64,000 nucleotides of DNA from Nitrosopumilus sp. (GCA_965204345.1 OZ241981.1:64001-128000); one strand, 5' to 3'. Counted from the stretch's first letter, positions 5,966-19,788 are shown. Notes: generated by a model not told the origin, from the sequence alone. Numbers and translations are program-made.

Positions 5966-7123
5966 ATGATTTCAGACTCTGAAAATATTCGTAGAGCCAT
6001 CCTGTCTAGATGGCACGAATCTCTTTTAAGGCATGGCAATCTGTTCTCTTCTGATTTTGTGAGCGGTGCTAGTCCTCCGTCTGTATTTGTTGGATCATAC
6101 AACTACCCCAAAGTCCTCGTTGGTCCTATGGTGCCCCCAATTCATGGGGATACTAGTCTGTTAGATAGCCCTGAGCGATGGACAGGAAAGTCTTTAGAAG
6201 ACATTGTAAATTTTAGGCTCAATTTGGTCAGGGGCACACAAAAAATTCCAATAGGACAGACTGACGGGCGATACGTTGAAAATCTCCAAGAAGTTACAAT
6301 GTCTTCAAGGCCTATTGATTCTGATCTAGTTTTTCAGAGTTCTACTGCCCCTAGTGTTTCACTTGACGGTGAGAGTGCCCCTTTTGGTCCTATTGGCCAA
6401 ATAAAATCTGCAAAATTCTCTGCAAATGCTCCTGTAAAATCTATAGAAAAAACATACTATGACAAGGATCTAAAAGCTCAAGATGCTGTTTTAAATTTAT
6501 ATAATTCCGGAGTAGAAATTTCAAAAATCCAAAAATGCTTCAGTATTGGAATGCTCGGATGCAAAAGGAAGCTTGTTCCTACTAAATGGAGTATTACTGC
6601 AACTGATGATATTATTTGCAAATCGCTTACCGAGGACGTGTTAAACTACGGCCTGATTGACTCGCACAGGGTCTTTTCGTATGAGCATTTGGGGAATATC
6701 TTTTGCGTGGTATTGTTTCCACACCGATGGGTCTATGAAATGATTGAGGCCTGGTATTCTAACGGTGTCTTGGGTTTTGGCTCTGACTGTGAGGATGCCC
6801 GCGGAATTGATCATCCTCCCACTATTGCCGGTGCATATTTTGCTGCAAAACTAGGTGTTTTAGAATACCTTGTCAAAAATAAAGTTCAAGCAGGAGCTGT
6901 AATTTTACGAGAAATCCGTCCCGAGTATGCCATCCCTGTCGGTGTGTGGCAAGTGAGAGAGGGCGTCAGGGAGGCAATGAATAAAAAGCATCTCTTTGCC
7001 GATGATTTTGAGCACGCACTAACTTTGGCCTCAAATAAAACGAGCATCAGTAAATCTGAGTGGCTCATGCATGGAAATGTTGTCGAACTGACCAGACAGA
7101 AAGCTATTTCTGATTTTTTTTAA
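5966..7123 (+). CDS. nreA: Nre-family DNA repair protein
   Basis: SPPSVFVGSYNYPKV, LVPTKWSITATDD, GAYFAAKL, PVGVWQVRE, C-terminal PIP box QKAISDFF. Confidence 0.9.
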   Translation: MISDSENIRRAILSRWHESLLRHGNLFSSDFVSGASPPSVFVGSYNYPKVLVGPMVPPIHGDTSLLDSPERWTGKSLEDIVNFRLNLVRGTQKIPIGQTDGRYVENLQEVTMSSRPIDSDLVFQSSTAPSVSLDGESAPFGPIGQIKSAKFSANAPVKSIEKTYYDKDLKAQDAVLNLYNSGVEISKIQKCFSIGMLGCKRKLVPTKWSITATDDIICKSLTEDVLNYGLIDSHRVFSYEHLGNIFCVVLFPHRWVYEMIEAWYSNGVLGFGSDCEDARGIDHPPTIAGAYFAAKLGVLEYLVKNKVQAGAVILREIRPEYAIPVGVWQVREGVREAMNKKHLFADDFEHALTLASNKTSISKSEWLMHGNVVELTRQKAISDFF

Positions 7124-7193
7124 AATCTGCTGATTTAATTTTAAATATCATAATTTTGCATAAGTATTTTTTTGGGGGTTATTAGTAAAATAA

Positions 7194-7740
7194 TGAACTA
7201 TCTACCTTTCCTAACAATTCAAAAGATCATCAAACATTTCAGAAAAAGCTGCAGACAGAGGCAGTAAATACGCAGAAAAAAACTCTTAATCAATAATAAA
7301 GAACTTTGATAAACTCTGTAAGGAAAAATATGACAAACAGGTGGTGAGACAATTAAAAGCGATTCGTGATGAATATTTTACTAAAACTGGAAGAAGAAAT
7401 ATGACAAGCAGGAGATCAGACCAATAGCAGAATATCAAAAAATAGATCTAGGTATTGTTTACAAGTTACTCCAAGAGTGGATCAACTGGAACAGCAAGAA
7501 TATGCTTCTAAATGATATCCCAGTTTTTTCATGTATTAAAAAAATATCTCAGATATCACAACATAAAGATCACAAAAGAGGATATGGAAAATTCTCCGGA
7601 TTTTCCATACATGATCAAAGAGGAAAAACACCCACTGACAAAAGAGGAGCTGCAAGATATTGAGTCTGAGCAACAGGAAAAATTATCTCAAAATTATAGG
7701 ACAGTTATCAAGTGGATTAAGATTGATAGGACTTGACAAG
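7194..7740 (+). pseudogene. Decayed N-terminal part of a tyrosine recombinase/integrase
   Basis: Pieces across frames read KNFDKLCKEKYD...YKLLQEWINWN...QFFHVLKKYLRYHNIKITKEDMEN...EEKHPLTKEELQDI, resembling the core-binding domain and LTxEE linker of thaumarchaeal integrases. Stops and frameshifts are present and the catalytic domain is missing. Confidence 0.6.
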
Positions 7741-7836
7741 TACATTCTAATAAATATCAAAAAGTGAATTTTTCAGAATGAAAATATTATTACATGGTAT
7801 TTAGAAAAATTATCCATAAATTAGAGATTTCAATAT

Positions 7837-8097
7837 GTAAGAATATCTCCTAAAATAAGAAATATCATTACACGGTATGATTTAGAAAAGAGAATAAATA
7901 TTCAAAGATTAGCGTGAAAAATACCAAAATCTACGTATAAGCCTGAACAATTTCTATGTCTGATCTTTAGAATTTAGGATAGATTGATTGGATTATCTTT
8001 GCATCGGAGAAGGGTATATTATCGAGAAGAAAACCATCTCTGAATTAAATCAAAAATGTTTGAAGTTCAAAGATGGATAAAATATACACTTGTCTAA
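7837..8097 (+). pseudogene. Pseudogene of the TBP paralog (C-terminal repeat only)
   Basis: Manual translation VRISPKIRNIITRYDLEKRINIQRLA*KIPKSTYKPEQFLCLIFRI*D...IFAS..KG...KTISELNQ aligns with the C-terminal half of 14536..15075 (IKITPKVQNIVARFDLKQ...LPKSMYEPEQFPGLIYRIQD...LFASGKG...KTIAEVN). Two stops plus frameshifts. Confidence 0.8.
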
Positions 8098-8112
8098 TCT
8101 TTTATTAGAGTT

Positions 8113-9474
8113 TTGTTGGTGGAAATAATGGTGACACAGATAGAATTTGAGAAAGAAAATCTTCCAGAAGGATGGATTGTAACAGCAATTAGCAACATAA
8201 CAGAAACTGTACAAAAAATTAATCCTAAAGATACCCCCAATAAAATATTCCATTATTGTGACATAAATTCGATCGATAATAGTAGATTACAAATTACCAA
8301 TCCAAAACAAATTTTGGGTAAGAATGCACCATCTAGAGCAAGACAACTAATTAAGAAAAATGACATATTATTTTCCACTGTTCGAACATATTTGAAAAAT
8401 ATTGCGATGGTTCCAGAACATTTAAATGATAATTTGGCATCAACAGGATTTTGTGTTATACGAGCAGGAAAAATTAATGAAAAATTTATGTTTAATTATA
8501 TACAATCATCTCAGTTCATTGATCTAATAAACAGTGCACAAAGAGGAATAAGTTATCCAGCTGTAAGAAATAATGATGTACATAATAGCATTATTCCTCT
8601 CCCCCCACTCAACGAACAAAAACGCATCGTTACAAAAATCGAATCAATCTTCACACAGATTGATGCATGTAAAGAAGAATTAGATGTATTTGCATCGCAG
8701 ACCAAATCAGTTTCTTATAGTTTACAAACATTGAAGGGAAATATATTAAAACAAATGTTTGAAGAATTAAATAAAAAACACAGAGCAGATATGTTAGAGA
8801 AGGTGTGTATTGATATCCAATCGGGATTTGCTCAAGGGGAAAAAGATGTAAAAAATGGAATAATTCATCTTAGAATGAATAATATAGATACAAACTTCAC
8901 AATGAATTTTGAACTACTTCGGACTATCAATGCTACAAATAAACAAAAAGAAAAATATCTTTTACAAAAAAATGACATACTTTTTGTGAATACGAATAGT
9001 GTAGAATTAGTAGGCAAATCTGCTATTTTTACATTTGATAAAGACTGTCTTTATAGTAATCATTTAACACGTCTGCGCACTAATATTTCTATACTAGATC
9101 CAAAATTTCTCTTGTATTATTTTTATTATAAATGGATAAAACATGATTTTCGAAGTATATGTAATAAATGGATAAATCAAGTGGCAATTAATACTACAAA
9201 AATTAAACAACTACAAATTCCTCTTCCTCCCCTCAACGAACAAAAACGCATTGTTACAAAAATCGAATCAATCTTTGACAGGATTGATGTAAAACAAGAG
9301 GAAATGAAAAAGATTGAGATGCAGTTAAAATCAATTCCCGACAGCATTAATACATTGAAAGGCAGCATATTAAAAAAAGCATTTGAAGGTAAGTTGGTTC
9401 CACAGAATCCAAATGACGAACACGCATCTGTACTTCTTGAGAGGATAAAATCCCAAAAATCTAGGAAAATATAA
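8113..9474 (+). CDS. hsdS: Type I RM specificity subunit HsdS, copy 1 (TRD-A + TRD-B, complete C-terminus)
   Basis: LPEGW, two IPLPPLNEQKRIV conserved regions, C-terminal AFEGKLVPQNPNDEHASVLLERIK typical of the EcoAI/EcoEI (type IB) group. Probable start is ATG 8128. Confidence 0.95.
   Translation: MLVEIMVTQIEFEKENLPEGWIVTAISNITETVQKINPKDTPNKIFHYCDINSIDNSRLQITNPKQILGKNAPSRARQLIKKNDILFSTVRTYLKNIAMVPEHLNDNLASTGFCVIRAGKINEKFMFNYIQSSQFIDLINSAQRGISYPAVRNNDVHNSIIPLPPLNEQKRIVTKIESIFTQIDACKEELDVFASQTKSVSYSLQTLKGNILKQMFEELNKKHRADMLEKVCIDIQSGFAQGEKDVKNGIIHLRMNNIDTNFTMNFELLRTINATNKQKEKYLLQKNDILFVNTNSVELVGKSAIFTFDKDCLYSNHLTRLRTNISILDPKFLLYYFYYKWIKHDFRSICNKWINQVAINTTKIKQLQIPLPPLNEQKRIVTKIESIFDRIDVKQEEMKKIEMQLKSIPDSINTLKGSILKKAFEGKLVPQNPNDEHASVLLERIKSQKSRKI
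8146..8178 (+). repeat. hsdS repeat R1 (33 bp); inverted copies at 15618-15650 and 16305-16337
   Basis: TTTGAGAAAGAAAATCTTCCAGAAGGATGGATT; 31/33 identical to the reverse complement of 15618-15650. Confidence 0.9.
8593..8666 (+). repeat. hsdS inverted repeat R2, left copy (74 bp)
   Basis: 73/74 identical to the reverse complement of 15835-15908 (single C/T difference at 8610). Confidence 0.95.
9233..9293 (+). repeat. hsdS inverted repeat R3, left copy (61 bp)
   Basis: 55/61 identical to the reverse complement of 15160-15220. Confidence 0.9.
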
Positions 9475-9499
9475 ACACATGACATAAATTTACAAATAG

Positions 9500-10189
9500 T
9501 TGTTTATTCAAATTTCCAAGATAAAGAAAAAATATAATATCTTTACTAATAACATGCAAATGATTATGAGATCTAATTTACAAAATGATACTGGCCTAAA
9601 AATTCACAATAAAATAATTTTACAATTTTTTAAAGATTGTAAAGATAAAAAATTGTTATCCAATACAATAAAACCACAACAGAATAATACTATATGTACT
9701 CGTTGGGATATATCTAAGTTAACCGATCAAGCAATTCAAAAAATACGTAAACATAGGATTGATTTAAAAAACAATGAAAAAACACAATTTCTAAGTGATA
9801 AAGAACATGATGCCTTACAGTTTTCTCGCTGTGTGTCTTTTTTGAGAGACACTACCGAAGATTTGAAAATTTCATTACAGTTAATTATTGATCCATCACA
9901 AGTAAAATCATGTACTGAGCTTGGAAAATACCTTAACGAAATTTATAATAAACTAGGTTATAATGACGACAAGAAATCCAAAATGAATCGTGCCTTTCAA
10001 AAAGATCTCAGAAATGCATTAAGTCATAACAATTATTCGTATAAATGTGATAAAAACCATGTAAAGAGCATAACATGGCAAGATCATAATCAAAAACACA
10101 CATGGAATCAAGTGGAATTGTCCAAATCCATCTCAAAGATAATTTGCATAAATGGACTAATTGGCAAAATAATTAATGGGAAATTCTGA
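9500..10189 (+). CDS. Hypothetical protein with RxxxxH (HEPN-like) motif
   Basis: AT-rich 229-aa ORF directly downstream of hsdS copy 1, with DLRNALSHNNY in a helical context. The true start may be ATG 9554 or 9560. Confidence 0.55.
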   Translation: MFIQISKIKKKYNIFTNNMQMIMRSNLQNDTGLKIHNKIILQFFKDCKDKKLLSNTIKPQQNNTICTRWDISKLTDQAIQKIRKHRIDLKNNEKTQFLSDKEHDALQFSRCVSFLRDTTEDLKISLQLIIDPSQVKSCTELGKYLNEIYNKLGYNDDKKSKMNRAFQKDLRNALSHNNYSYKCDKNHVKSITWQDHNQKHTWNQVELSKSISKIICINGLIGKIINGKF

Positions 10190-10197
10190 TACCGTGC

Positions 10198-11697
10198 TTA
10201 TTTTGGGATTTCCTTGTTGATAATGTCTTTTATATCTTCAAATGACTTGATCATGCCCTTTCTTAGATCAATAAACTGATCAATTAATTTGTCTGGTGGC
10301 AGAACAATTGTTTCAATTACATCTGTTGGATTGTTGGAGTCAAGATTGAAATCCTGAATGTCTTTAACATTAATTTTCCATGCATTTTCATTTGATGTCT
10401 TCTTTTTGAACCATTTTTCAATCTCTGCAAAGTCGTCATATGCGATTGGGTTTGACTTTGTATATTTGGGATTCTTTGCACGAGTTACTCCACGCAATCG
10501 TTCGGCTACCTTCATTTGATAATACCAAATTTCTTTGGTTGGTCCTGTCTTGTCAAAAAACAGTATGTTTGTTGCAATTGATGTGTAAGGCTCAAAAACA
10601 GTTTTGGGCAGCCTAATTATCGTATGCAAGTTAAATTCTTCAAGAAGTTTTTTCTTGATTTTAGAGGCAACGCCTCCTGCAAACATTGGACCATCTGGAA
10701 GAATAATTCCACACCGTCCTCCTTCTTTTAGAGAATACATGATGTATAACAAGAATGAAAGAGCAGTATCTGATGTCTGCATTCCTACAGGTAGATTGGA
10801 TGAAATTCCTTCCTCCTCTTCCCCCCCAAATGGTGGATTCGTTATGATAAGATCATACTGGTCATTTTGAGAAATTTCTCTCAGAGGATTAACAAGTGTG
10901 TTTGCTCTGATAATGTTTGGTTTGTCTACCTCATGAAGAAGCATATTCATCATTCCTAAAAGATAAGGCATGGATTTTTTCTCGATCCCAAATAATGTGT
11001 TTGTAGTTAGTTTCTTCAAATCTCCTTTTGTTTTTTGTTCATGTCTTAGAAACTCCAAAGATTCTACCAAAAATCCACCTGTACCACATGCAGGATCTAA
11101 TATCTTTTCAGATTTTTTTAGACTAGGGTTGATTTGATTTACAATAAACCGAATTACAGGTCTTGGTGTGTAAAATTCTCCACTATTTCCTGCGGCATCT
11201 CTCATCTCAATTAACATATCTTCATAGAGTTTTGCCATGGTGTGAATGTCATCAGTATTGATAAAATTTACCTTATCTATCAGATTAATAATCTGTCTGA
11301 GGAGGTATCCACTGAGTATTCTATTGTTTAATTCTTTAAAGATCGTTGCAATGACATCTCTTTGTTCAAAACCTTTATCACCTGTCAGTTTTGAGAGTTT
11401 TGGAAATAATTTATTATTTACAAATGAGATTAGATCAGGACCTGTTAAAACCTTGACAGTACGTCCTTTCTTATCTTTTTCTGCTGCCCAATCCTGCCAT
11501 CGTAATCCCTTTGGTATTGCCTCCACATATTTTCTATTTAGAGCAGCCCTCTCTCTTTCAAAATCATCAAAACTCTTTAGGAATAAAATCCATGCAATTT
11601 GAGGAATTCTATCAACATCAGTATTAAGACCTGCATCTTTTCTCATTAGATCTCTTGCAGATTTTATTATAGAACGAAGTGAATGTGCATCCATCAT
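10198..11697 (-). CDS. hsdM: Type I RM methyltransferase subunit HsdM (N6-adenine)
   Basis: GEFYTPR, DPACGTGGF (motif I), NPPF (motif IV), N-terminal RDLMRKDAG. Confidence 0.97.
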   Translation of the reverse strand: MMDAHSLRSIIKSARDLMRKDAGLNTDVDRIPQIAWILFLKSFDDFERERAALNRKYVEAIPKGLRWQDWAAEKDKKGRTVKVLTGPDLISFVNNKLFPKLSKLTGDKGFEQRDVIATIFKELNNRILSGYLLRQIINLIDKVNFINTDDIHTMAKLYEDMLIEMRDAAGNSGEFYTPRPVIRFIVNQINPSLKKSEKILDPACGTGGFLVESLEFLRHEQKTKGDLKKLTTNTLFGIEKKSMPYLLGMMNMLLHEVDKPNIIRANTLVNPLREISQNDQYDLIITNPPFGGEEEEGISSNLPVGMQTSDTALSFLLYIMYSLKEGGRCGIILPDGPMFAGGVASKIKKKLLEEFNLHTIIRLPKTVFEPYTSIATNILFFDKTGPTKEIWYYQMKVAERLRGVTRAKNPKYTKSNPIAYDDFAEIEKWFKKKTSNENAWKINVKDIQDFNLDSNNPTDVIETIVLPPDKLIDQFIDLRKGMIKSFEDIKDIINKEIPK

Positions 11698-11728
11698 TAC
11701 TCATAATCGTATCGACATTAAATATGAT

Positions 11729-14095
11729 TCAGTTGTCTCTATACAATTCCTTTGTTAATTGTATTATTGCACCATCATATTCATCACCATCTTTGAATCT
11801 GTGATTGATGATTTCAGTAGGGCCTCCAAACTGTTTGAATTTTGGCAATTTCAAAACTCCTCTTTCCTCCAACTCTTGATACCCCTCCTCTGCATAATGA
11901 TCCAATATCACCTCTAGAACTTCTCGTGCTTTGTTCGGATATTTCTCCAAAAATGCCTTTTTATGTACAGAATTGATCCTCTCTAATCGAGTTTTTGCAT
12001 CTGCATTAAATGCAAAATGTAAGAGCATATCAAATGAATCAATCTTAGCCATCTGAGTGATTTCTTTAAGATGTGAAAAACTAACGCCTCTCTCTTCTAG
12101 TTGCTTTACAAAATGCTGTCTTTTTTCAGGATCTGTCCATATCTTGTATAGTTTTGTTTGTTCATCATTTACTAGACGGCGAACAGTCTCTCCAGTATAA
12201 TCTTGATAAGAAATAAGCCTATTCTGATTAATTGATTGATCAAAAATTAAAACCGATTCACCACGAATTTCTACTTTTTTTCCATTTATGTGATATGTTT
12301 TAATTGTTTGTGATTCTTGTTCTTCTTCTGCTTTATCTTCTAGTGCCTCTTTTACTGCATTTCTTCTTTTCTCTTCTGCACGTTCTAAGATTTTTTTTTC
12401 TTTTTCTTTAGTAATTATTTCTTGTTCTTCTTCAGTTTCTGCAATTGCAGGACCATCCCATTCTACATCCTCAAACAATCTACTAGTTTTTCTATAATCT
12501 ATAATTGAAAACCACATCTTATCTTTTGGTTCATAGACACGGGTACCTCTACCAATAATTTGTTTGAATTCAGTCATGGAATTAATGCTCTTATCTAATG
12601 CAATTATCTTGCATGTTGGAACATCTACGCCTGTTGACATTAATCTAGATGTAACTGCAACAATTGGAAAATCTTTGTTTGGTTCCTGGAATTGATCCAA
12701 GTATTCTCGTCCTATTTCACCTTCAGCAGAAACTATTCTGACACAATAGTCATGTCTTTCTCCAGAATAATTTCGAATTAGTTTAGTCATTGCTTGTGCA
12801 TGTTCTGAGTTTTGACAAAATAAAATCGTCTTGTTATATTTTTGATTATTTTTCTCCAAAAAATCTACAAGGTGTTTTGCTACGGTCTTTCGTCTCTCAT
12901 CAACAATTAAAATTCTGTCAAAATCTTTATAGCTGTATGTTTTGTCATCAAGTATCTTTCCATCTAAATCCGTTTCCCCTGGTTTTGGAATATATCCCGT
13001 CAGATCAATTTCAAGATTAACCCTGTGAATCATGTATGGTGCTAAAAAGCCATCTTCAATTCCTTGTTTTAGACTGTATGTGTATATAGGAATACCAAAA
13101 TAATCATACGTATCTTTATTTTCGTCCTTTCGTTTAGGAGTTGCAGTCATGCCTATGTGAACAGCATCTTTGAAATAATCCAATATCTTTCTCCAGCTCC
13201 CATCCTCATTGGAGCTTCCTCTGTGACATTCATCAATTATTATGTAATCAAAGAAATCTTTTGAATATTGCTTGTACAGCTCACAATCCTCTTTATCTAC
13301 ATCAAGTGCTTGATATAGTGCAAAATACATACTATATGCAGTCTGTGCAACTTTTTGGATCTTGTGTCTTGCTTCACCAAAACCTGCAAATGCATTATTT
13401 TTTGCTTGATCTAACAAAACGGTTCGATCTGCTAAAAATAAAATTTTTGGATGTGGGGTATCTTTTTTCCAGAGTTTTTGTGCAATTTGATAAGATATGA
13501 ATGTCTTGCCAGTTCCAGTCGCAAGATTTAAGAGTACGCGCTTCTTTCCTGCAAGAATTGCTGTTAATGTGGAATGGATTGCAATTTCTTGATAGTACCG
13601 AGGTTCCATGGGAGATCCTCCTGGATCTTTTGAACTTCGATCCAACGACTCTAATATAACATTCATTTGTTTTTTATTAAAATTTATACCTTCTTGGAAT
13701 CTCTCTAGTAATTCTTGAGGTGTTGGAAATTTATCTATTGTTTGTTGTTGTTTTTTGGAAAAGTCATATTCTTCAATTTTCTGTCCATTTGTTGCAAAAG
13801 CAAATTTTAACTCCATTTTTTCAGCATATTTTATTGCCTGACTCATTCCTTCATCATGTGGTTTGTCCCATGCTTTAGCTTCTATTACTGCAATTTTGTA
13901 ATCATCACCCAACTTGAGAATGTAATCAGCTATGATTGGTTGTGCCCTTTTTCCAGTACGGCCATCAGGAGTAATTCTGCCTTCATTAATTTTATATTCC
14001 CTAATGATTTTATCTAATTCCCAACCAGATTCTGCTAGCTTGGGATCAATATGTCTCATACAAGTGGTTGATTCGGACATCTTTTCTTCAGTCAA
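11729..14095 (-). CDS. hsdR: Type I RM restriction subunit HsdR (EcoAI/EcoEI-like)
   Basis: ADY...VIEAK nuclease motif, ATGTGKT, IIIDECHRG, GMTATP, TGVDVP, QIIGRGTR and an EcoEI_R_C-like C-terminus. Confidence 0.97.
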   Translation of the reverse strand: MTEEKMSESTTCMRHIDPKLAESGWELDKIIREYKINEGRITPDGRTGKRAQPIIADYILKLGDDYKIAVIEAKAWDKPHDEGMSQAIKYAEKMELKFAFATNGQKIEEYDFSKKQQQTIDKFPTPQELLERFQEGINFNKKQMNVILESLDRSSKDPGGSPMEPRYYQEIAIHSTLTAILAGKKRVLLNLATGTGKTFISYQIAQKLWKKDTPHPKILFLADRTVLLDQAKNNAFAGFGEARHKIQKVAQTAYSMYFALYQALDVDKEDCELYKQYSKDFFDYIIIDECHRGSSNEDGSWRKILDYFKDAVHIGMTATPKRKDENKDTYDYFGIPIYTYSLKQGIEDGFLAPYMIHRVNLEIDLTGYIPKPGETDLDGKILDDKTYSYKDFDRILIVDERRKTVAKHLVDFLEKNNQKYNKTILFCQNSEHAQAMTKLIRNYSGERHDYCVRIVSAEGEIGREYLDQFQEPNKDFPIVAVTSRLMSTGVDVPTCKIIALDKSINSMTEFKQIIGRGTRVYEPKDKMWFSIIDYRKTSRLFEDVEWDGPAIAETEEEQEIITKEKEKKILERAEEKRRNAVKEALEDKAEEEQESQTIKTYHINGKKVEIRGESVLIFDQSINQNRLISYQDYTGETVRRLVNDEQTKLYKIWTDPEKRQHFVKQLEERGVSFSHLKEITQMAKIDSFDMLLHFAFNADAKTRLERINSVHKKAFLEKYPNKAREVLEVILDHYAEEGYQELEERGVLKLPKFKQFGGPTEIINHRFKDGDEYDGAIIQLTKELYRDN

Positions 14096-14535
14096 TTTTC
14101 AACATAAAATTTTCAACATATTTCTAGATAAATGTTCTTTTTGAAAAATCAAATATTTTAGAATAAAATCAAGATTTGAATCTGCGAAATATTTTTGAGA
14201 ACTGATCTATTATACAGCTAACCATAGTGTGTTTATATCAGATCAAGAATAGGTGTGACTCTGAAAATATCTGGAATTTCTTGTATGGTGTAACAAGCAT
14301 TAGCTTGAACTCCTCTGTACAGACTGATTTTCACCTCCAATCATAACATTAACAAGTATTTACTTGTTGGACAGTAACGCAAAATATGCAAAATGAGAGA
14401 TGTTCATTAGATCTACAATTGTGGTACTTCGCACTATTGGATCTTTGGTTTTTATTTAGATTAGGACATATCTAGACAACTGATTACAAAATAGATTCAA
14501 TCTTAACAATTATTAGAAAAAATAAGAAAATTTCA

Positions 14536-15075
14536 CTAGATACATCTTACCTTGATATCAAATAATGCAGAATTTACTTCTGCAATGGTTTTTGCCCCTG
14601 CAATAACTCCTTTTCCTGATGCAAACAAAAGTGCTACACAGCTATCTTGAATTCTATATATCAAACCGGGAAATTGTTCTGGTTCATACATACTTTTTGG
14701 TAATATTCTTACAAGTTTTTCTATTGGCAAATTTTGTTTTAAATCGAATCGCGCTACAATATTTTGCACTTTGGGAGTAATTTTAATGAGTTTTGCAAGA
14801 TTATAATTATCCAGTATTTTTATTGCTTTTTTTAATTCTTTTTTAGATTGTGCAGGATTCTTTGTTCCAACTGAAATAAGTTTTCCATTTCCAAATACAG
14901 TAACTCGTCCAACCATCAAATCATCTTTTACATACCTACACCTGTATAAAGCAATATTTGAGCTGAGAAAGGGATATTTGTTAAAAGAAGCAATATCTAT
15001 TTTCTGTTTAAGATCTGCTGTAGTTACAGTGTTTTGAATTTTAATTCCTGCTACAAGCTTTGACTCTTTTTGCAT
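14536..15075 (-). CDS. Divergent TATA-box-binding protein paralog
   Basis: Two-repeat TBP architecture: IQNTVTTADL...VFGNGKLISVGTK and VQNIVARFDL...YEPEQFPGLIYRI...LLFASGKGVIAGAK. Repeat 1 lacks the YxPExFPG motif. Confidence 0.9.
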   Translation of the reverse strand: MQKESKLVAGIKIQNTVTTADLKQKIDIASFNKYPFLSSNIALYRCRYVKDDLMVGRVTVFGNGKLISVGTKNPAQSKKELKKAIKILDNYNLAKLIKITPKVQNIVARFDLKQNLPIEKLVRILPKSMYEPEQFPGLIYRIQDSCVALLFASGKGVIAGAKTIAEVNSALFDIKVRCI

Positions 15076-15086
15076 TAAAATTCATG

Positions 15087-16346
15087 TTACCCTATCGCAT
15101 TAAAAATGAATGTATTATTCACATATGTGATTTTTTGTTTGATTAAATATAATATCTGCTTTACATCAATCTTGTCAAAGATTGATTCAATTTTGGATAC
15201 GATGCGTTTTTGTTCGTTGAAAGGCGATAGTAAGACAGGAATAGTTTTCATTGCTGTCTGATTAAGTTTCAATCGTGTTGTCCCAGTTACATATCCATGA
15301 TAATTCACCTGATTCAAATAGTGGCAAAGAAATTTGTTGATCAATAATCCAGATATTCCTTTAAGAACATGAGCATGATTATTAACCCAACTTTTTCCAT
15401 TAACAATGTAGGCTTTGTTTTTGAAAGTTTCAAAAAATGGTGCACCGTCTTCTCCCAACAAAACCAATTCTTCATCAAAAATATAATCATCAATCAAGCC
15501 AACTTGACCAGTAGCACCATAATATGGAATATTTCCAGTACGATTTTTCCGTTCACTAGAATTTACTGGTATTCTTTTTCTGTCCCAAATTTCTACAATA
15601 TCTTCCAAATTGATCTTAATCCAACCTTCTGGAAGATTCTCTTTCTCAAAAATCAACTCTTTCTCAGAACTCTTATGCAATCTCCTCAAAAGCATCTCTG
15701 CTGGCTCATCAGCTGGATCCTGTGAAACCAGCTTGCCCTCAAAGGCCTGCTTGAGCACGCTACTTCTTAGCATCCCCAGGCTGCCAGAAGATGACTTTAT
15801 TTGAGATGCAAGTGCCTCCAGCTTGTTTTGTGCCGCATCAATCTGTGTGAAGATTGATTCGATTTTTGTAACGATGCGTTTTTGTTCGTTAAGTGGGGGG
15901 AGAGGAATTGAATATATTGCCAGCTTTTCATATTTTATTCGAGGGTGTTGAACTCCTGTCATATTTCTATTAGCAAAACGTACAACCTGACTGGTAGATA
16001 AAAATAACATAATGTATTTGCTAACCAGATTGTCATTTTGTTGGAAAACCAATATGTCTGTGGAACACACTCCGTTAAAATCTGGAATTGCTACTTTGTT
16101 TAGATATGGACGTAATTTTCCATAAAGAATATCTCCCTTACTAAAGACATTTTTTGTGCTCTTTGTATCTTTTGAATTGGCCTTTCCAATAATTTTTCTT
16201 GAATTACTTTCTATGTGTTCTAATCCCACAAAAGGTTGATTTTTCTCATTCTTTGGATCAAATTTTCTTTTTGATTGATTCAGAACATTCAGTAAATCTG
16301 TTCTAATCCACCCTTCTGGAAGATGCTCTTTCTCAAAAATCAACAT
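15087..16346 (-). CDS. hsdS: Type I RM specificity subunit HsdS, copy 2 (TRD-C + TRD-D, C-terminal conserved region missing)
   Basis: LPEGW twice, IPLPPLNEQKRIV, central AFEGKLVSQDPADEPA. After IDVKQ the sequence becomes unrelated (ILYLIKQKITYVNNTFIFNAIG*). Confidence 0.9.
   Translation of the reverse strand: MLIFEKEHLPEGWIRTDLLNVLNQSKRKFDPKNEKNQPFVGLEHIESNSRKIIGKANSKDTKSTKNVFSKGDILYGKLRPYLNKVAIPDFNGVCSTDILVFQQNDNLVSKYIMLFLSTSQVVRFANRNMTGVQHPRIKYEKLAIYSIPLPPLNEQKRIVTKIESIFTQIDAAQNKLEALASQIKSSSGSLGMLRSSVLKQAFEGKLVSQDPADEPAEMLLRRLHKSSEKELIFEKENLPEGWIKINLEDIVEIWDRKRIPVNSSERKNRTGNIPYYGATGQVGLIDDYIFDEELVLLGEDGAPFFETFKNKAYIVNGKSWVNNHAHVLKGISGLLINKFLCHYLNQVNYHGYVTGTTRLKLNQTAMKTIPVLLSPFNEQKRIVSKIESIFDKIDVKQILYLIKQKITYVNNTFIFNAIG
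15160..15220 (-). repeat. hsdS inverted repeat R3, right copy
   Basis: Reverse complement matches 9233-9293 at 55/61; similarity ends where hsdS copy 2 loses homology. Confidence 0.9.
15618..15657 (-). repeat. hsdS repeat R1, internal copy (40-bp direct repeat with 16305-16344)
   Basis: 38/40 identical to 16305-16344; encodes LIFEKENLPEGWI. Confidence 0.9.
15835..15908 (-). repeat. hsdS inverted repeat R2, right copy
   Basis: 73/74 match to 8593-8666. Confidence 0.95.
16305..16344 (-). repeat. hsdS repeat R1, 5' copy
   Basis: Encodes LIFEKEHLPEGWI at the start of hsdS copy 2. Confidence 0.9.
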
Positions 16347-16559
16347 ATCAATTCTTTGTTTCTTTAATTTAAATTAGTCAAGTAACAGTTAAAGTGAAAA
16401 ATAGAATTTTATAAATCATAACAAATGAATCTCCTGCAATTGTTGCAAAGCTTTGAAATTATTGTACTATACTCCAAGGAGATTGTCATTGTGACATAAA
16501 CGTACTTTGTCTTTTCTTCAGATATTATAGTTAATGGTTTTATCTAGTTTATTAGCCAT

Positions 16560-17486
16560 TTAGATCTCTATTTTATACATGACTTTTTTGAATTCCCTAA
16601 AGAGATCTTCTAGGGTAGGCGTCAGATATACATGATCAAGACCATTTTTGTGACCCATTAGCTTTTCTGCAATGTTATAGTTTACTGAATTGTCCAGTTT
16701 TAAGACAGTATTGTATCGCTTTCTAAAACCATGATCTGCTTGGACGTCAAAACGATTTTTTGATTTTATTCTTTTCAGGTTACTTTTCTGAATTATTCTA
16801 TAAATTGCAGAACGAACGCCGTTCCAACCTAATTGTTTTGGAAGGAATTTGGTTGTTGCAAATATGGGAGTATCTTTGTAAAATATTTCTCCTTGATTTT
16901 TACGATATTCATGATAAGCTTTCAATGCCTTGGTTGCTTGTGGTGTAAGAAATGCCCAATACTCCTCAACATGTCCCGCATAAAGCAATATGCCAGTGCA
17001 ACCATATGACATCTTCATCATGTGTTTTATGGATAAATCGTGATCAAAAACTCCCACCCTTGCTCCTGTTGAACTAAAAAAGTACACCAAAGCTTTGTTC
17101 CTAAGGCTTGTTGTGTTGGATAATAATTTCTTGATTTCTTTTGTCGTATATGCCCTCAAGCTTTGCGTTTTTTGCTTTTGTGGGAACATTTTGTTTATGA
17201 TGTTCCAGTTAAGATTAATCTCATTCATTATACAGAAATGCTTTATGCCCTGAAACTTTGATGGGATAGAATTGGGGTTTGTAGTACGCTTTAGCTCGAT
17301 TAAATAATTCTCAAGATTATACTGCAAGTCTGTATTTGGAATACTTGTTAGTTGATTTTGGGATGTAATGTTTGCAAAATTTAAAAAAGAGTTAAGATGT
17401 GATGTATAATTCTTTTTTGTGTATTTTGATTTTATCGACTCTTCAAATAATAATGAACATCGATGTTTAGTTATTAAATTACTCAT
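16560..17486 (-). CDS. Tyrosine recombinase/integrase (Xer-like), intact
   Basis: Catalytic residues present: STGARVG (R), HGFRKR (HxxR), LMGH (H) and HVY (Y). Confidence 0.93.
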   Translation of the reverse strand: MSNLITKHRCSLLFEESIKSKYTKKNYTSHLNSFLNFANITSQNQLTSIPNTDLQYNLENYLIELKRTTNPNSIPSKFQGIKHFCIMNEINLNWNIINKMFPQKQKTQSLRAYTTKEIKKLLSNTTSLRNKALVYFFSSTGARVGVFDHDLSIKHMMKMSYGCTGILLYAGHVEEYWAFLTPQATKALKAYHEYRKNQGEIFYKDTPIFATTKFLPKQLGWNGVRSAIYRIIQKSNLKRIKSKNRFDVQADHGFRKRYNTVLKLDNSVNYNIAEKLMGHKNGLDHVYLTPTLEDLFREFKKVMYKIEI

Positions 17487-18208
17487 GTATTATTTTATTG
17501 TAAAATATTTATTTTTGTACATATGTTTATGAAATTAGAGCATCTTAATTTTTAGGATCATAATACTTTATCAAGATTGTTTTATATTCCCAGCATAAAA
17601 TCACAAACAGATTATTCTCTGATGATTTGGCATCTTGTAATATTTCCAAAATTGTTCCCATCTTTAAGATATGATTGCCTGCAGCTCATAATTAGTCATA
17701 CTGATAAAAAATATCGTTAGATTTACGTATGGAATTAAGGTCCAGAATGCCAAGTATCAATCTTTGCAGAAGTTAATATAACCTGGTGTAAAATATTGCC
17801 CTACACCTAAAATTATTACTGTAAAAACCAAAGAAAACCCAGAATAGTCTGCATTGGATTCTATTAATGAACTAACTGATGATTTGGACAAAACTTGGTG
17901 TTTCTTAGTTTAACTAAAATCAAATCCTGATTATAAAGACATTAATTTTTTTCCATATCATATGCATATGCCAAAGGGCATCAAAGGTAACTATCTTGCG
18001 CAAATTTGACACTTGCAGATGAATTTGATTACAGTTCATCAAGAAATGCCAATTTTGAATCCATGAACAATTACGTAACGTAATCATCATCTTCTGGGGC
18101 ATGTGTGCGTGCGTTTCTACTCTATCTTTTTTTTCATCATTGGAATTATCTGCTGATCTGCCCTAATCAGAGAGCATAAATCCTAGATTTAAATAAAAAA
18201 ATGAAACG

Positions 18209-18964
18209 ATGAATGAAGATTTGGCGGGAACTGATTATTCCAAATATGGCAAATACACAGTTGATGATTCTCTTGAATTGTCCCTGCCTGGAACCACTAT
18301 AAAATTTGAAAAAATAAGCGAAAATGCTTTTTCATATTTTAGAGAGGATTCTGAGGGCAAAATAACTGAAAAAATGATCCCTGTTCATTCTGATGAATTA
18401 AAGATTGAAATGGCTCCTATCAGGCCCCTTAACCATCCGGCAAGACGTACCGGATACGTCTTTTTAAAATTTGACAAGGAAATCTATCTCAGCCAAAACT
18501 CTGCGGCTAGCATCTTTGTCCACTGCCCAATCGAAGTTGGCATTTTCATAGTTAATGGACCTGCCAGAGAATCCCTGGATTGGATTACGTGCAATCCCCT
18601 TAATTCTAGGTTTGGCCTGTATGGCCCTCCTGATACCGGAATTTTGTGCAAGTATGCCAAAGTCACACTGGCTACTGACTTTGCAGATTCTGTTCCCTAT
18701 GTTGAATGTGTGATGAAAGTTGTCATTGAAAATAATCTGAGTTCCGGGCAAACAATTAGCAAAATAATTTTCCCAATTACTGATAATTCCCTCTACTATG
18801 AAGACTCTAAATCTGTCTTAGATGGAATCAAAGTGACTTTGAAAAAGCGGGCAGTTGTCAGTATTGCAGATGTCCAAACTGCCGTATTGGATACTGACTG
18901 GAAAAAATCCCCCACATGGGAAGACAACACAAAAAATACCTCCATGGAGATGGGATTGGAATGA
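18209..18964 (+). CDS. DUF432-family protein
   Basis: CPIEVGIF and LYGPPDTGILCKY; DUF432 genes typically lie upstream of mscS in archaea. Confidence 0.75.
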   Translation: MNEDLAGTDYSKYGKYTVDDSLELSLPGTTIKFEKISENAFSYFREDSEGKITEKMIPVHSDELKIEMAPIRPLNHPARRTGYVFLKFDKEIYLSQNSAASIFVHCPIEVGIFIVNGPARESLDWITCNPLNSRFGLYGPPDTGILCKYAKVTLATDFADSVPYVECVMKVVIENNLSSGQTISKIIFPITDNSLYYEDSKSVLDGIKVTLKKRAVVSIADVQTAVLDTDWKKSPTWEDNTKNTSMEMGLE

Positions 18965-19788
18965 CTCCGATAGACTTTCTTTCTGGACTGTCAGAAATAG
19001 AGATTGCAGGCGGCCTGAACGTTCTCTCATTACTGATTGGCGGAATCATTATGGCTGCCGGAATCATTATTGCAAAGATTGCAAAGCTGATTTTCTTCAA
19101 ATATTACGCCCCAACTTTGCCTCAGGACACTGCAAAGAATTTTGGCAAAATAATTTATTTTGGAATAATCGTAATGGCGTTTCTTGCGTTTACTTCCAGC
19201 CAGGGCCTTGACTTTTCAGGCCTGCTTGTAGCAGGCGGGATCTTTGCCGTGGTGATTGGATTTGCAACCCAATCAGTAGTCTCCAACTTGATCTCAGGTG
19301 TCTTCTTGATGATTGAAAAACCTGCAAAGCATGGCGATACTTTGCAGATTCCTGACATGGGAATATCTGGAACCCTGCTGGATATTGGCACTTTTTCTAG
19401 CAGGGTTAGAAAGTTTGACGGGACTGTAATTCGAATACCAAATGAGAAATTCTTCACATCCAATATCCGCTCATTAACTGTCTCAACTGTAAGGCGGGCT
19501 GAGGCCATGGTGGGAATTGCCTACAGGGCTGACATTGAAGATGCCATATCCTCAATTAGGGCTGAAATCTTACTTGGGATGCCCTTTGTGCTGAGGGTTC
19601 CAGAGCCTGAGTTCCGTGTCGAGGAACTGGGCGATTCTAGCGTAAATATCCAGGTATTGGTATGGCATCCCCGTGATGATTGGAGCCAGGCCCAGCCCAT
19701 TTTGCTGACTACGATAAAGCGCGCATTGGACAAATCTGGAATAGAAATCCCGTTTCCTCAGCGTGTTATCTGGGATGCCAAGGATTAG
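18961..19788 (+). CDS. mscS: Small-conductance mechanosensitive channel
   Basis: Three TM helices, GFATQSVVSNLISG, IPNEKF, GIEIPFPQR. Start is ATG 18961, overlapping the upstream stop. Confidence 0.92.
   Translation: MTPIDFLSGLSEIEIAGGLNVLSLLIGGIIMAAGIIIAKIAKLIFFKYYAPTLPQDTAKNFGKIIYFGIIVMAFLAFTSSQGLDFSGLLVAGGIFAVVIGFATQSVVSNLISGVFLMIEKPAKHGDTLQIPDMGISGTLLDIGTFSSRVRKFDGTVIRIPNEKFFTSNIRSLTVSTVRRAEAMVGIAYRADIEDAISSIRAEILLGMPFVLRVPEPEFRVEELGDSSVNIQVLVWHPRDDWSQAQPILLTTIKRALDKSGIEIPFPQRVIWDAKD

Follow-up and report, generated by a model that had tools for sequence, protein, structure and literature searches.

An invertible hsdS locus beside a Xer-like tyrosine recombinase in Nitrosopumilus sp., an archaeal variant of the bacterial hsdS shufflon

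Organization of the locus

The locus described here is a complete type I restriction-modification (R-M) system next to a gene for a Xer-like tyrosine recombinase in Nitrosopumilus sp. (GCA_965204345.1), within a stretch of 64,000 nucleotides (OZ241981.1:64001-128000) that is referred to as the window and from whose first letter positions are counted unless a contig is named. The window is part of contig C1 (G000:C1:64001-128000) of a genome (G000) of 2.12 Mb in nine contigs, and since this genome encodes an archaeal AmoA (2e-116), the host is an ammonia-oxidizing archaeon. HsdM, HsdR, and two HsdS subunits with two target recognition domains (TRDs) each are encoded in one locus (Table 1), and the two inverted hsdS genes face each other around hsdM and hsdR, as had been reported in an earlier note made from this DNA alone. 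On the minus strand, the recombinase gene is followed by hsdS2, a gene for a TATA-binding protein (TBP) paralogue, hsdR, and hsdM, and hsdS1, followed by ORF229, converges on that row. The four TRDs are dissimilar, again in line with the earlier note, with identities of at most 30% over short local alignments and 22% over 128 amino acids in the best pair (A-C). Translation of hsdS1 likely starts at the ATG at 8129, and hsdS2 terminates 22 codons past ...IDVKQ and is without most of the distal helix present in hsdS1. The recombinase, correctly described beforehand as intact and directly upstream of hsdS2, has 308 amino acids and is encoded 213 nt upstream of that gene, which places a predicted invertase beside the locus.

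The whole system is contained in an island with a G+C content of 0.28-0.36 (7001-18000) against 0.39-0.44 in the flanks, bounded by an Nre gene (5966-7123) and a DUF432 gene (18209-18964). The region of the hsdS2 central helix (15690-15830) has a markedly higher G+C content than the rest of the island. Three features had escaped the earlier note, namely the strain-variable low-G+C island itself, the truncated tail of hsdS2, and the TBP paralogue within the invertible segment.

Table 1. Features of the hsdS locus and its island in the window.
Feature	Position	Strand	Evidence or relation
Low-G+C strain-variable island with the whole system	7125..18020		G+C content and joint in run X1
Degraded TBP pseudogene upstream of hsdS1	about 7825..8080	+	Stop-to-stop frames like the C-terminal half of TBP
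hsdS1: TRD-A, central helix, TRD-B, full-length C-terminal helix	8113..9474	+	Methylase_S PF01420 5.8e-23, 2 stretches; PADLOC Specificity_I 7.6e-64
R1 copy (codons FEKENLPEGWI), 5' end of hsdS1	8146..8178	+	31/33 to 15618-15650, inverted
R2 left copy, candidate core 8643-8664	8593..8666	+	73/74 to 15835-15908
R3 left copy, candidate core 9267-9288	9233..9293	+	55/61 to 15160-15220
ORF229, orphan, after hsdS1, within the invertible segment	9500..10189	+	Gene call
hsdM	10198..11697	-	N6_Mtase PF02384 5.3e-63; HsdM_N PF12161 5e-9; PADLOC MTase_I 4e-163
hsdR	11729..14095	-	ResIII 4e-38; EcoEI_R_C 2e-26; Helicase_C; PADLOC REase_I 5e-208
Intact divergent TBP paralogue between hsdS2 and hsdR, in the invertible segment	14536..15075	-	Pfam TBP 1.9e-31, 2 repeats
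hsdS2: TRD-C, central helix, TRD-D, shortened C-terminal helix	15087..16346	-	Methylase_S 6e-33, 2 stretches
R3 right copy, candidate core 15165-15186	15160..15220	-	Partner of left R3
R1 copy before TRD-D; direct repeat of copy at 16298-16337	15618..15650	-	Family D4
R2 right copy, candidate core 15837-15858	15835..15908	-	Partner of left R2
Xer-like tyrosine recombinase, candidate invertase, 308 amino acids, intact	16560..17486	-	PF00589, XerA_Arch, catalytic residues

Inverted repeats and a candidate core site within the hsdS genes

Inverted repeats shared by the two genes (R1, R2, and R3) form part of the hsdS reading frames, where they mark the borders of the TRDs and are in phase, and their match counts, which were recomputed exactly and on which repeat finding and blastn agree, are those given in the earlier note. 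The repeats code for the starts of both conserved HsdS helices (IPLPPLNEQKRIVTKIESIF..ID) and for the N-terminal FEKENLPEGW, motifs that recur in the HsdS proteins of one family, and purifying selection on the coiled-coil helices that contact HsdM might therefore be thought to account for them with nothing recombining at all. This explanation is very improbable, since 23 of the 24 codons of R2 are identical and the remaining one differs synonymously, whereas among the same-residue codons of the equally conserved helix right after R2 only 4/17 are identical and 13/17 are synonymously different; identity at synonymous positions that is found in R2 but not downstream shows that DNA identity exceeds both chance and protein constraint. 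A 20-residue peptide that is the same at the C-terminus of hsdS1 and in the center of hsdS2, which are not partners, is encoded with six synonymous differences. An explanation by selection alone is also at odds with the R3 recombinant junction, the R1 deletion, and the module swaps that are described below. As R2 and R3 stand in the same codon phase in both genes, inversion at either would keep the reading frame and give the alleles A-B, C-D, C-B, and A-D, and this prediction of the earlier note holds.

R1 has a further copy, which pairs 8146-8185 with 16298-16337 (35/40, inverted), and it also forms a family of direct repeats (D4) within hsdS2, where 15617-15657 and 16304-16344 are 95% identical. 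It was considered as a designed inversion site and rejected, because an exchange between 8146-8178 and 15618-15650 would yield a one-TRD and a three-TRD gene. R1 is treated instead as a conserved motif that is recombinogenic, as seen in a direct-repeat deletion in two sequencing runs (X1 and X2).

Embedded in the ESIFxxID codons of each R2 and R3 copy is a palindrome, ATCAATCT-N6-AGATTGAT, whose arms of 8 nt are separated by a spacer of 6 nt. The core of the left R2 copy reads ATCAATCT-TCACAC-AGATTGAT, a perfect palindrome (8/8), and that of the left R3 copy reads ATCAATCT-TTGACA-GGATTGAT; in both R2 and R3, the high identity between partner repeats ends 5-10 nt past the right arm of the core. 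The pattern ATCAATCY-N6-RGATTGAT occurs at eight places in the 2.12-Mb genome, all of them in these hsdS genes, with four in the window (8643, 9267, 15165, and 15837) and four in contig C3, a second haplotype of the locus, and the reversed control pattern occurs at none. Both central sites of the window have the spacer TCACAC and both of those in C3 have TCTCAC, and the four C-terminal sites all have TTGACA, so partner sites share a spacer and the two site classes differ. Among 17 such helices from five loci, the arms match at 8/8 positions in nine, 7/8 in six, and 6/8 in two, and GAATCAATC is kept in 17/17 with variation at neighboring synonymous sites. The core of one related locus (L053), ATCAATCC...GGATTGAT, is changed in both arms with the palindrome kept, and in three loci with another type of hsdS helix (L045, L049, and L055) its place is taken by a different dyad, namely GCGTCAA(T)...(A)TTGACGC. 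An HsdM scan of JGI metagenomes gave 80 loci, the best of them only 71% identical; the 43 of these that were examined (L058-L099 and L114) contained no match to the recombinase and none to the core site, and the JGI loci, among which the same species had been sought, gave no junction information.

Rearranged junctions and haplotypes

Twelve sequencing runs were listed, all as contigs (Logan, k=31), and six of them contain at least half of the sampled words of the stretch; the runs aligned to 7000-18500 were X5 and X7 (organism A, from one study) and X1 and X2 (sponge metagenomes from two other studies). In X2, positions 9280 and 15172 are connected on opposite strands by a single contig that extends 255 nt or more to either side and has a depth of 21.5, compared with a locus depth of 23-27 in the same run. 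Sixteen nucleotides at the junction fit both sides and place the crossover within 9265-9280, which is the left arm and spacer of the core, and the pairing of 9280 with 15173 indicates a precise reciprocal exchange inside R3. X2 also has a loose end at 9259 with 17 letters, the last nine of which match the hsdS2-type left half of R3 at 9/9 positions (5/9 for the hsdS1 type), and this end fits the reciprocal R3 junction. In X5, one contig passes through R3 in the reference orientation (8637-14722). With the R3-inverted junction in one of the four runs (X2) and the module arrangement of contig C3, both R3 orientations occur in nature, between populations or haplotypes.

Recombination between the direct copies of R1 is recorded in X1 and X2, where a deletion joins 15638 to 16326 with 18 nt that fit either side. 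The deletion (15639-16325) removes TRD-C and the central helix of hsdS2 and leaves a one-TRD hsdS; over 15832-16215, X1 and X2 have depths of 3.6 and 2.9, respectively. Contig ends of X1 at 9280, 9265, and 15188 coincide with bases that distinguish the R3 copies and could mean that both orientations are present, but they were not counted as evidence because C3-like haplotypes in X1 share those words. X1 has a further joint, from 8593 to 15616 (depth 8.3, side 40).

Contig C3 (L009, 10.6 kb) has a left flank 99.5% identical to the window and a recombinase end with 92% DNA identity and 67/67 identical residues, and between these same flanks it carries a different hsdM/hsdR set, with an HsdM that is 30% identical to that of the window. 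Its module of R3, truncated tail, and TBP is 92.5% identical to that of the window and sits on the hsdS gene at the Nre side, not on the one at the recombinase side. The two hsdS genes of C3 share an inverted repeat of 755 nt (99%). C3 is a minor haplotype of the same population, as its joints are found at a depth of 12-55 in X5 and X7. Five joints of X5 and X7 (9216/16307, 8178/9219, 14535/15693, 15220/15617, and 15770/15161) were rejected as rearrangements of the main haplotype, being the C3 haplotype mapped onto the window. Positions 15617-15909 of the window are 95% identical to both central regions of C3 (818-1110 and 7427-7716); the center of hsdS2 is thus C3-like and that of hsdS1 of another type, which makes hsdS2 a mosaic.

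The X2 junction and C3 might also be assembly artefacts or belong to another organism, given that the junction is one contig in one run, that the likeness threshold was 90, and that the X2 contigs contain many 1-nt indels. Such an origin is improbable. The longest exact stretch common to the R3 copies is 18 nt, which is shorter than the assembler word (k=31), so graph collapse does not explain a contig that extends well beyond the repeat on both sides at locus depth, and 127 of the 132 X2 pieces reach a likeness of 95% or more. For C3, the confirmation by joints in two runs and the near-identical flank speak against an artefact or a foreign source.

A second type I island lies elsewhere in the genome (G000:C1:228205-239555; L010: 4206-15556) and contains a TBP gene (+), two half-size hsdS genes (-), hsdR (-), hsdM (+), and two further half-size hsdS genes (+), with an unrelated tyrosine recombinase of 448 amino acids between hsdR and hsdM. 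The hsdS genes that face each other there have perfect inverted repeats in common, one of 62 nt and one of 30 nt (L010 6161-6222 / 13589-13650), and the island is a candidate for another shufflon. In contig C6 (16309-19975), 3.67 kb with open reading frames of 449 and 239 amino acids replaces the entire island (11.35 kb) between flanks that are 99.7-99.8% identical to those in C1. In the sampled population, both type I islands are therefore haplotype-variable defense hot spots, and each has a tyrosine recombinase and a TBP paralogue of its own.

The recombinase and its relatives

The recombinase matches the NCBIfam model XerA_Arch (2e-14, 53.8 bits), short of the cut-off of 220 for the XerA equivalog NF040815, and an NCBIfam scan at E<=0.01 returned only XerA, XerC, XerD, and PRK00283. 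The residues R143, H252, R255, H279, and Y287 are invariant in 15/15 sequences and correspond to the R..H-x-x-R..H/W..Y signature, and they align with TGxR and HxxR...GH...Y, the box I and box II motifs, of the XerA chains 5hxy and 4a8e at weak E-values (0.003 and 0.033). A search of the PDB by sequence with the single protein gave no match. Membership of the PsrA/CreX clade is not indicated by the NCBIfam scan, a result that concerns the models and not the PsrA, TvrR, and HvsR sequences themselves, which were not compared, and that presumes from a product name that NCBIfam includes a PsrA model (PMC9881135). The gene is the only intact copy in the genome. No gene of this genome reaches the NCBIfam XerA equivalog cut-off, the best being the hsdS-linked recombinase with 52.7 bits.

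Homologues are present in 139 of 300 genomes of the family (E<=1e-10), a tally that includes seven unpublished genomes, which enter into no other statement made here. Nine of the 12 closest orthologues (54-70% identity) are found beside type I genes, with hsdS as neighbor in eight loci (L045, L046, L047, L049, L051, L053, L054, and L055) and hsdM only in one (L052). The orthologue lies between two inverted hsdS genes in L049, L051, and L055, the inverted repeats of which measure 208 nt (92%), 221 nt (93%), and 176 nt (86%), respectively. In a sample of the genus, hsdS was found in 9/40 other genomes, and 7/10 loci with multiple hsdS genes have a PF00589 gene within about 5 kb (G000 2/2, G291 3/3, G327 1/2, G254 1/1, G309 0/1, and G312 0/1). 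In G327, of the same genus, a frame of 383 amino acids (G327:C1:65257-65943) has an N-terminal PF00589 match directly followed by one to PF01420 and adjoins a second integrase and an inverted hsdS; this frame may represent a fusion or a scar left by recombination. Relatives of the recombinase were absent from phage records, none of 76 pattern matches in IMG/VR was confirmed, and plasmids gave one weak cyanobacterial match (26% identity).

Probable programmed inversion and its alternatives

The hsdS locus is genuinely invertible, with a product of R3 inversion found in nature, and can be classed as a new archaeal form of the hsdS shufflon ("epigenetic inverton") of bacteria. The interpretation as an invertible locus in the earlier note is thereby borne out by the architecture, the junction in X2, and the orthologues linked to inverted hsdS pairs, but switching within one population was not seen in the X5 and X2 contigs. 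Programmed, recombinase-driven phase variation is the best reading of the locus, unproven and with a probability of roughly 0.6.

Under programmed phase variation, recombination between the inverted R3 copies would flip 5.9 kb (9281-15172), and between the R2 copies 7.2 kb (8667-15834). The R3 flip would swap what follows the second TRDs, that is, the full distal helix and ORF229 against the truncated tail and TBP-hsdR-hsdM, and whichever hsdS gene acquired the truncated tail would head the transcription unit TBP-hsdR-hsdM. With an R2 flip, the second TRDs would be swapped as well, and the four combinations, of which A-B is that of this assembly, could each appear as the allele with the full helix. 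The recombinase is predicted to bind the 8-nt arms and to exchange strands in the 6-nt spacer, and with TCACAC marking central and TTGACA marking C-terminal sites only like sites would pair. If the full distal helix is what HsdS needs to assemble with HsdM, the specificity of both methylation and restriction would switch.

A number of observations weigh against programmed phase variation. No mixture of orientations was seen within any sample, and the X5 and X2 contigs are unbranched, so each population is dominated by one state; such dominance is compatible with rare inversion or selection no less than with phase variation, and because contigs drop rare variants it is not decisive. An R2 inversion was not observed, although the contigs of all four runs break in the 54-nt exact part of R2 (8637/8638 and 15861-15864), so R2 flips are invisible there. 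The X2 crossover falls in one of three identical stretches of R3 and is thus equally compatible with homologous recombination. The PF00589 match of the recombinase (1.6e-5, 25.2 bits) is below the family threshold of 27.1 bits, and 3/12 of the closest orthologues (L044, L048, and L050) are without type I genes in the stretch fetched, which in L050 ends 245 nt past the gene. The palindrome-bearing helices are all homologous, and for this reason the conservation of the arms is suggestive and not independent evidence; nor was there, among the loci compared, any hsdS gene with the same peptide but without a recombinase that could serve as control. The truncated tail of hsdS2 could mean decay and not design. 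The same may be said of one C3 gene, hsdS_b (6888-8195, minus strand), which has no in-frame ATG, GTG, or TTG before FEKENLP as a result of a 2-nt difference from the window (TG inserted behind 8137); it looks like a silent donor copy and shares 755 nt at 99% with the expressed hsdS_a. A joint from 7125 to 18020 in X1, at a depth of 217.5 and with unspecified letters between its two sides, points to an abundant related strain without the island, and the recombinase stands at the edge of this low-G+C island, which is the usual position of an island integrase.

These last points keep alive a different account, in which inversion or shuffling is real but rare and proceeds by homologous recombination or gene conversion between hsdS helices. 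The recombinase would then take no part in hsdS inversion and be the integrase, or a relic, of a cryptic integrated element with the R-M system as its cargo, and phase variation would not be programmed. The presence/absence polymorphism with a recombinase at the right end of the island and a drop in G+C content is what an integrated element would leave, a cassette likewise takes the place of the second type I island in C6, X5 and X2 show one orientation each, with the X2 crossover in an identical 16-nt stretch, and XerC/D integrases and type I S, M, and R genes are among the commonest arCOGs of thaumarchaeal integrated elements (PMC6563490). This account, the main rival, is the less likely of the two. 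Direct repeats like those of att sites and a tRNA or gene target were not found: the best direct repeat at the island borders is 10-13 nt (E>=0.19), with none longer than 13 nt, and no tRNA gene occurs in positions 1-30000 of the window. Also against an integrase are the lack of relatives in phage records and IMG/VR, with a single weak match in plasmids, the position of the orthologue between inverted hsdS genes in three related genomes and not at an island edge, the different tyrosine recombinase of the second island, which lies between hsdR and hsdM, and the palindromic core with class-specific spacers, which is exclusive to these hsdS genes. Homologous recombination would, moreover, probably be inefficient between repeats that measure 61-74 nt and match exactly over runs of 16-54 nt.

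A more far-reaching version of the programmed reading can be put forward tentatively. The Xer-like family may be confined to ammonia-oxidizing archaea and may be a dedicated hsdS invertase that recognizes an 8-6-8 core embedded in the codons of the HsdS coiled coil (ESIFxxID), with different central and distal spacers allowing productive exchanges only. The result could be phase variation of the methylome in a sponge-associated archaeon, which would make this the first archaeal "phasevarion," and the flip might couple specificity to the promoter that drives hsdR, hsdM, and the TBP paralogue. As a platform that holds unrelated hsdM/hsdR sets in different haplotypes (30% identical HsdM), the locus may also be a site of defense cassette exchange.

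Neighboring genes and non-coding regions

The genome contains five intact TBP genes, two of which stand beside hsdS loci. The degraded TBP copy upstream of hsdS1 has a PF00352 match at G000:C1:71849-71986 (7849-7986 in the window) with two internal stops. TBP paralogues recur beside type I R-M genes in L010 (4658-5215), L045, L053, L066, L070, L072, and L090, and TBP matches adjoin hsdS or hsdM in 2/14 loci of relatives and 4/43 metagenome loci. ORF229 has no Pfam family above the cut-off and no NCBIfam or PADLOC match, and tblastn found no match to it among the 57 related loci examined.

Directly upstream of the recombinase lies a non-coding stretch of about 400 nt (17592-17993) without an Rfam match, of which there is a second copy at G000:C1:905742-906138 (89%) and a further copy in contig C8. 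Rfam matches were absent throughout 6500-19000. A scan for promoters found 65 sites against 59.2±7.2 in shuffled sequence, with a model that is bacterial and unsuited to archaea.

Comparison with known systems and significance

In layout, the closest analogue appears to be the pair of hsd loci of Mycoplasma pulmonis (hsd1 and hsd2, with the recombinase HvsR). There, as here, two hsdS genes are inverted, and inversions at short sites within hsdS reassort the TRD halves. Work by Dybvig et al. in 1998 and Sitaraman et al. in 2002 reportedly describes the hsdS pair of M. pulmonis as flanking hsdM and hsdR, which flip along. HvsR catalyzes hsdS inversions at two S+ loci (PMC7672463). M. pulmonis differs in that the gene for HvsR lies away from the loci on which it acts and vsa genes are inverted by HvsR as well, whereas here the recombinase is adjacent, Xer-like, and archaeal, the segment additionally holds a TBP paralogue and an orphan open reading frame, and inversion is deduced from sequence.

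The Streptococcus pneumoniae locus SpnIII, also called cod or ivr, with its recombinase PsrA (CreX), is likewise a type I system with inverted repeats at TRD borders in hsdS and a locus-encoded tyrosine recombinase, and several HsdS alleles arise from one locus (PMC4948785, PMC7672463). In SpnIII, one expressed hsdS downstream of hsdM swaps TRDs with silent partial copies and hsdR and hsdM remain fixed, whereas in the present locus both hsdS genes have their own 5' ends and a flip would move hsdM, hsdR, and the C-terminal helix.

Among archaea, the nearest precedents are the euryarchaeal "epigenetic invertons" of the TvrR clade, which are also type I systems with several hsdS genes and a homologue of a tyrosine invertase, recognized by bioinformatics (Huang et al., 2020; PMC7672463). 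These predicted loci, 11 in Table 2 of that paper, were overlooked in the earlier note. They belong to another phylum, and the TvrR clade was found with a bacterial query, whereas the present recombinase had no close relative outside its archaeal family in the searches made. Thaumarchaeal cryptic integrated elements share with the present island a low G+C content, variability, a XerC/D-like integrase, and type I genes (Krupovic et al., 2019; PMC6563490). They differ in that no att repeats or tRNA or gene target were found here and that the recombinase is tied to inverted hsdS pairs and not to element ends.

Bacterial hsdS inversion systems are well described (PMC4948785, PMC7672463, and PMC7394358), and one paper names archaea as future work (PMC9881135) and another calls archaeal invertons minimally investigated (PMC10028968). 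The main text of PMC7672463 contains neither Thaumarchaeota nor Nitrosopumilus, and its supplementary tables might list more. A 2023 survey of archaeal R-M systems gives 0.286 M and 0.571 S genes per genome for 14 Nitrosopumilales and has, in its accessible text, no word starting with "inver" (PMC10609329), and a study of sponge Thaumarchaeota notes an enrichment of R-M systems, with no occurrence of "integrase" in the text available (PMC7848895). The statement in the earlier note that no such system was known in ammonia-oxidizing archaea agrees with this literature, in which no description was found, apart from any that supplementary tables might hold.

The occurrence of TBP genes beside type I islands points to an unstudied link between archaeal defense islands and basal transcription factors. 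In host-associated bacteria, programmed hsdS inversion is a major source of heterogeneity in both epigenetic state and phage resistance, and the archaeal record of it consists of no more than passing remarks and a single table of predicted loci in Euryarchaeota. The present locus provides a concrete and testable case in abundant sponge-dwelling nitrifiers, in an environment where phage pressure is thought to be high, and it offers a natural inversion product in public data, a new clade of recombinases, a precisely placed candidate target site, and a spacer rule open to mutational tests.

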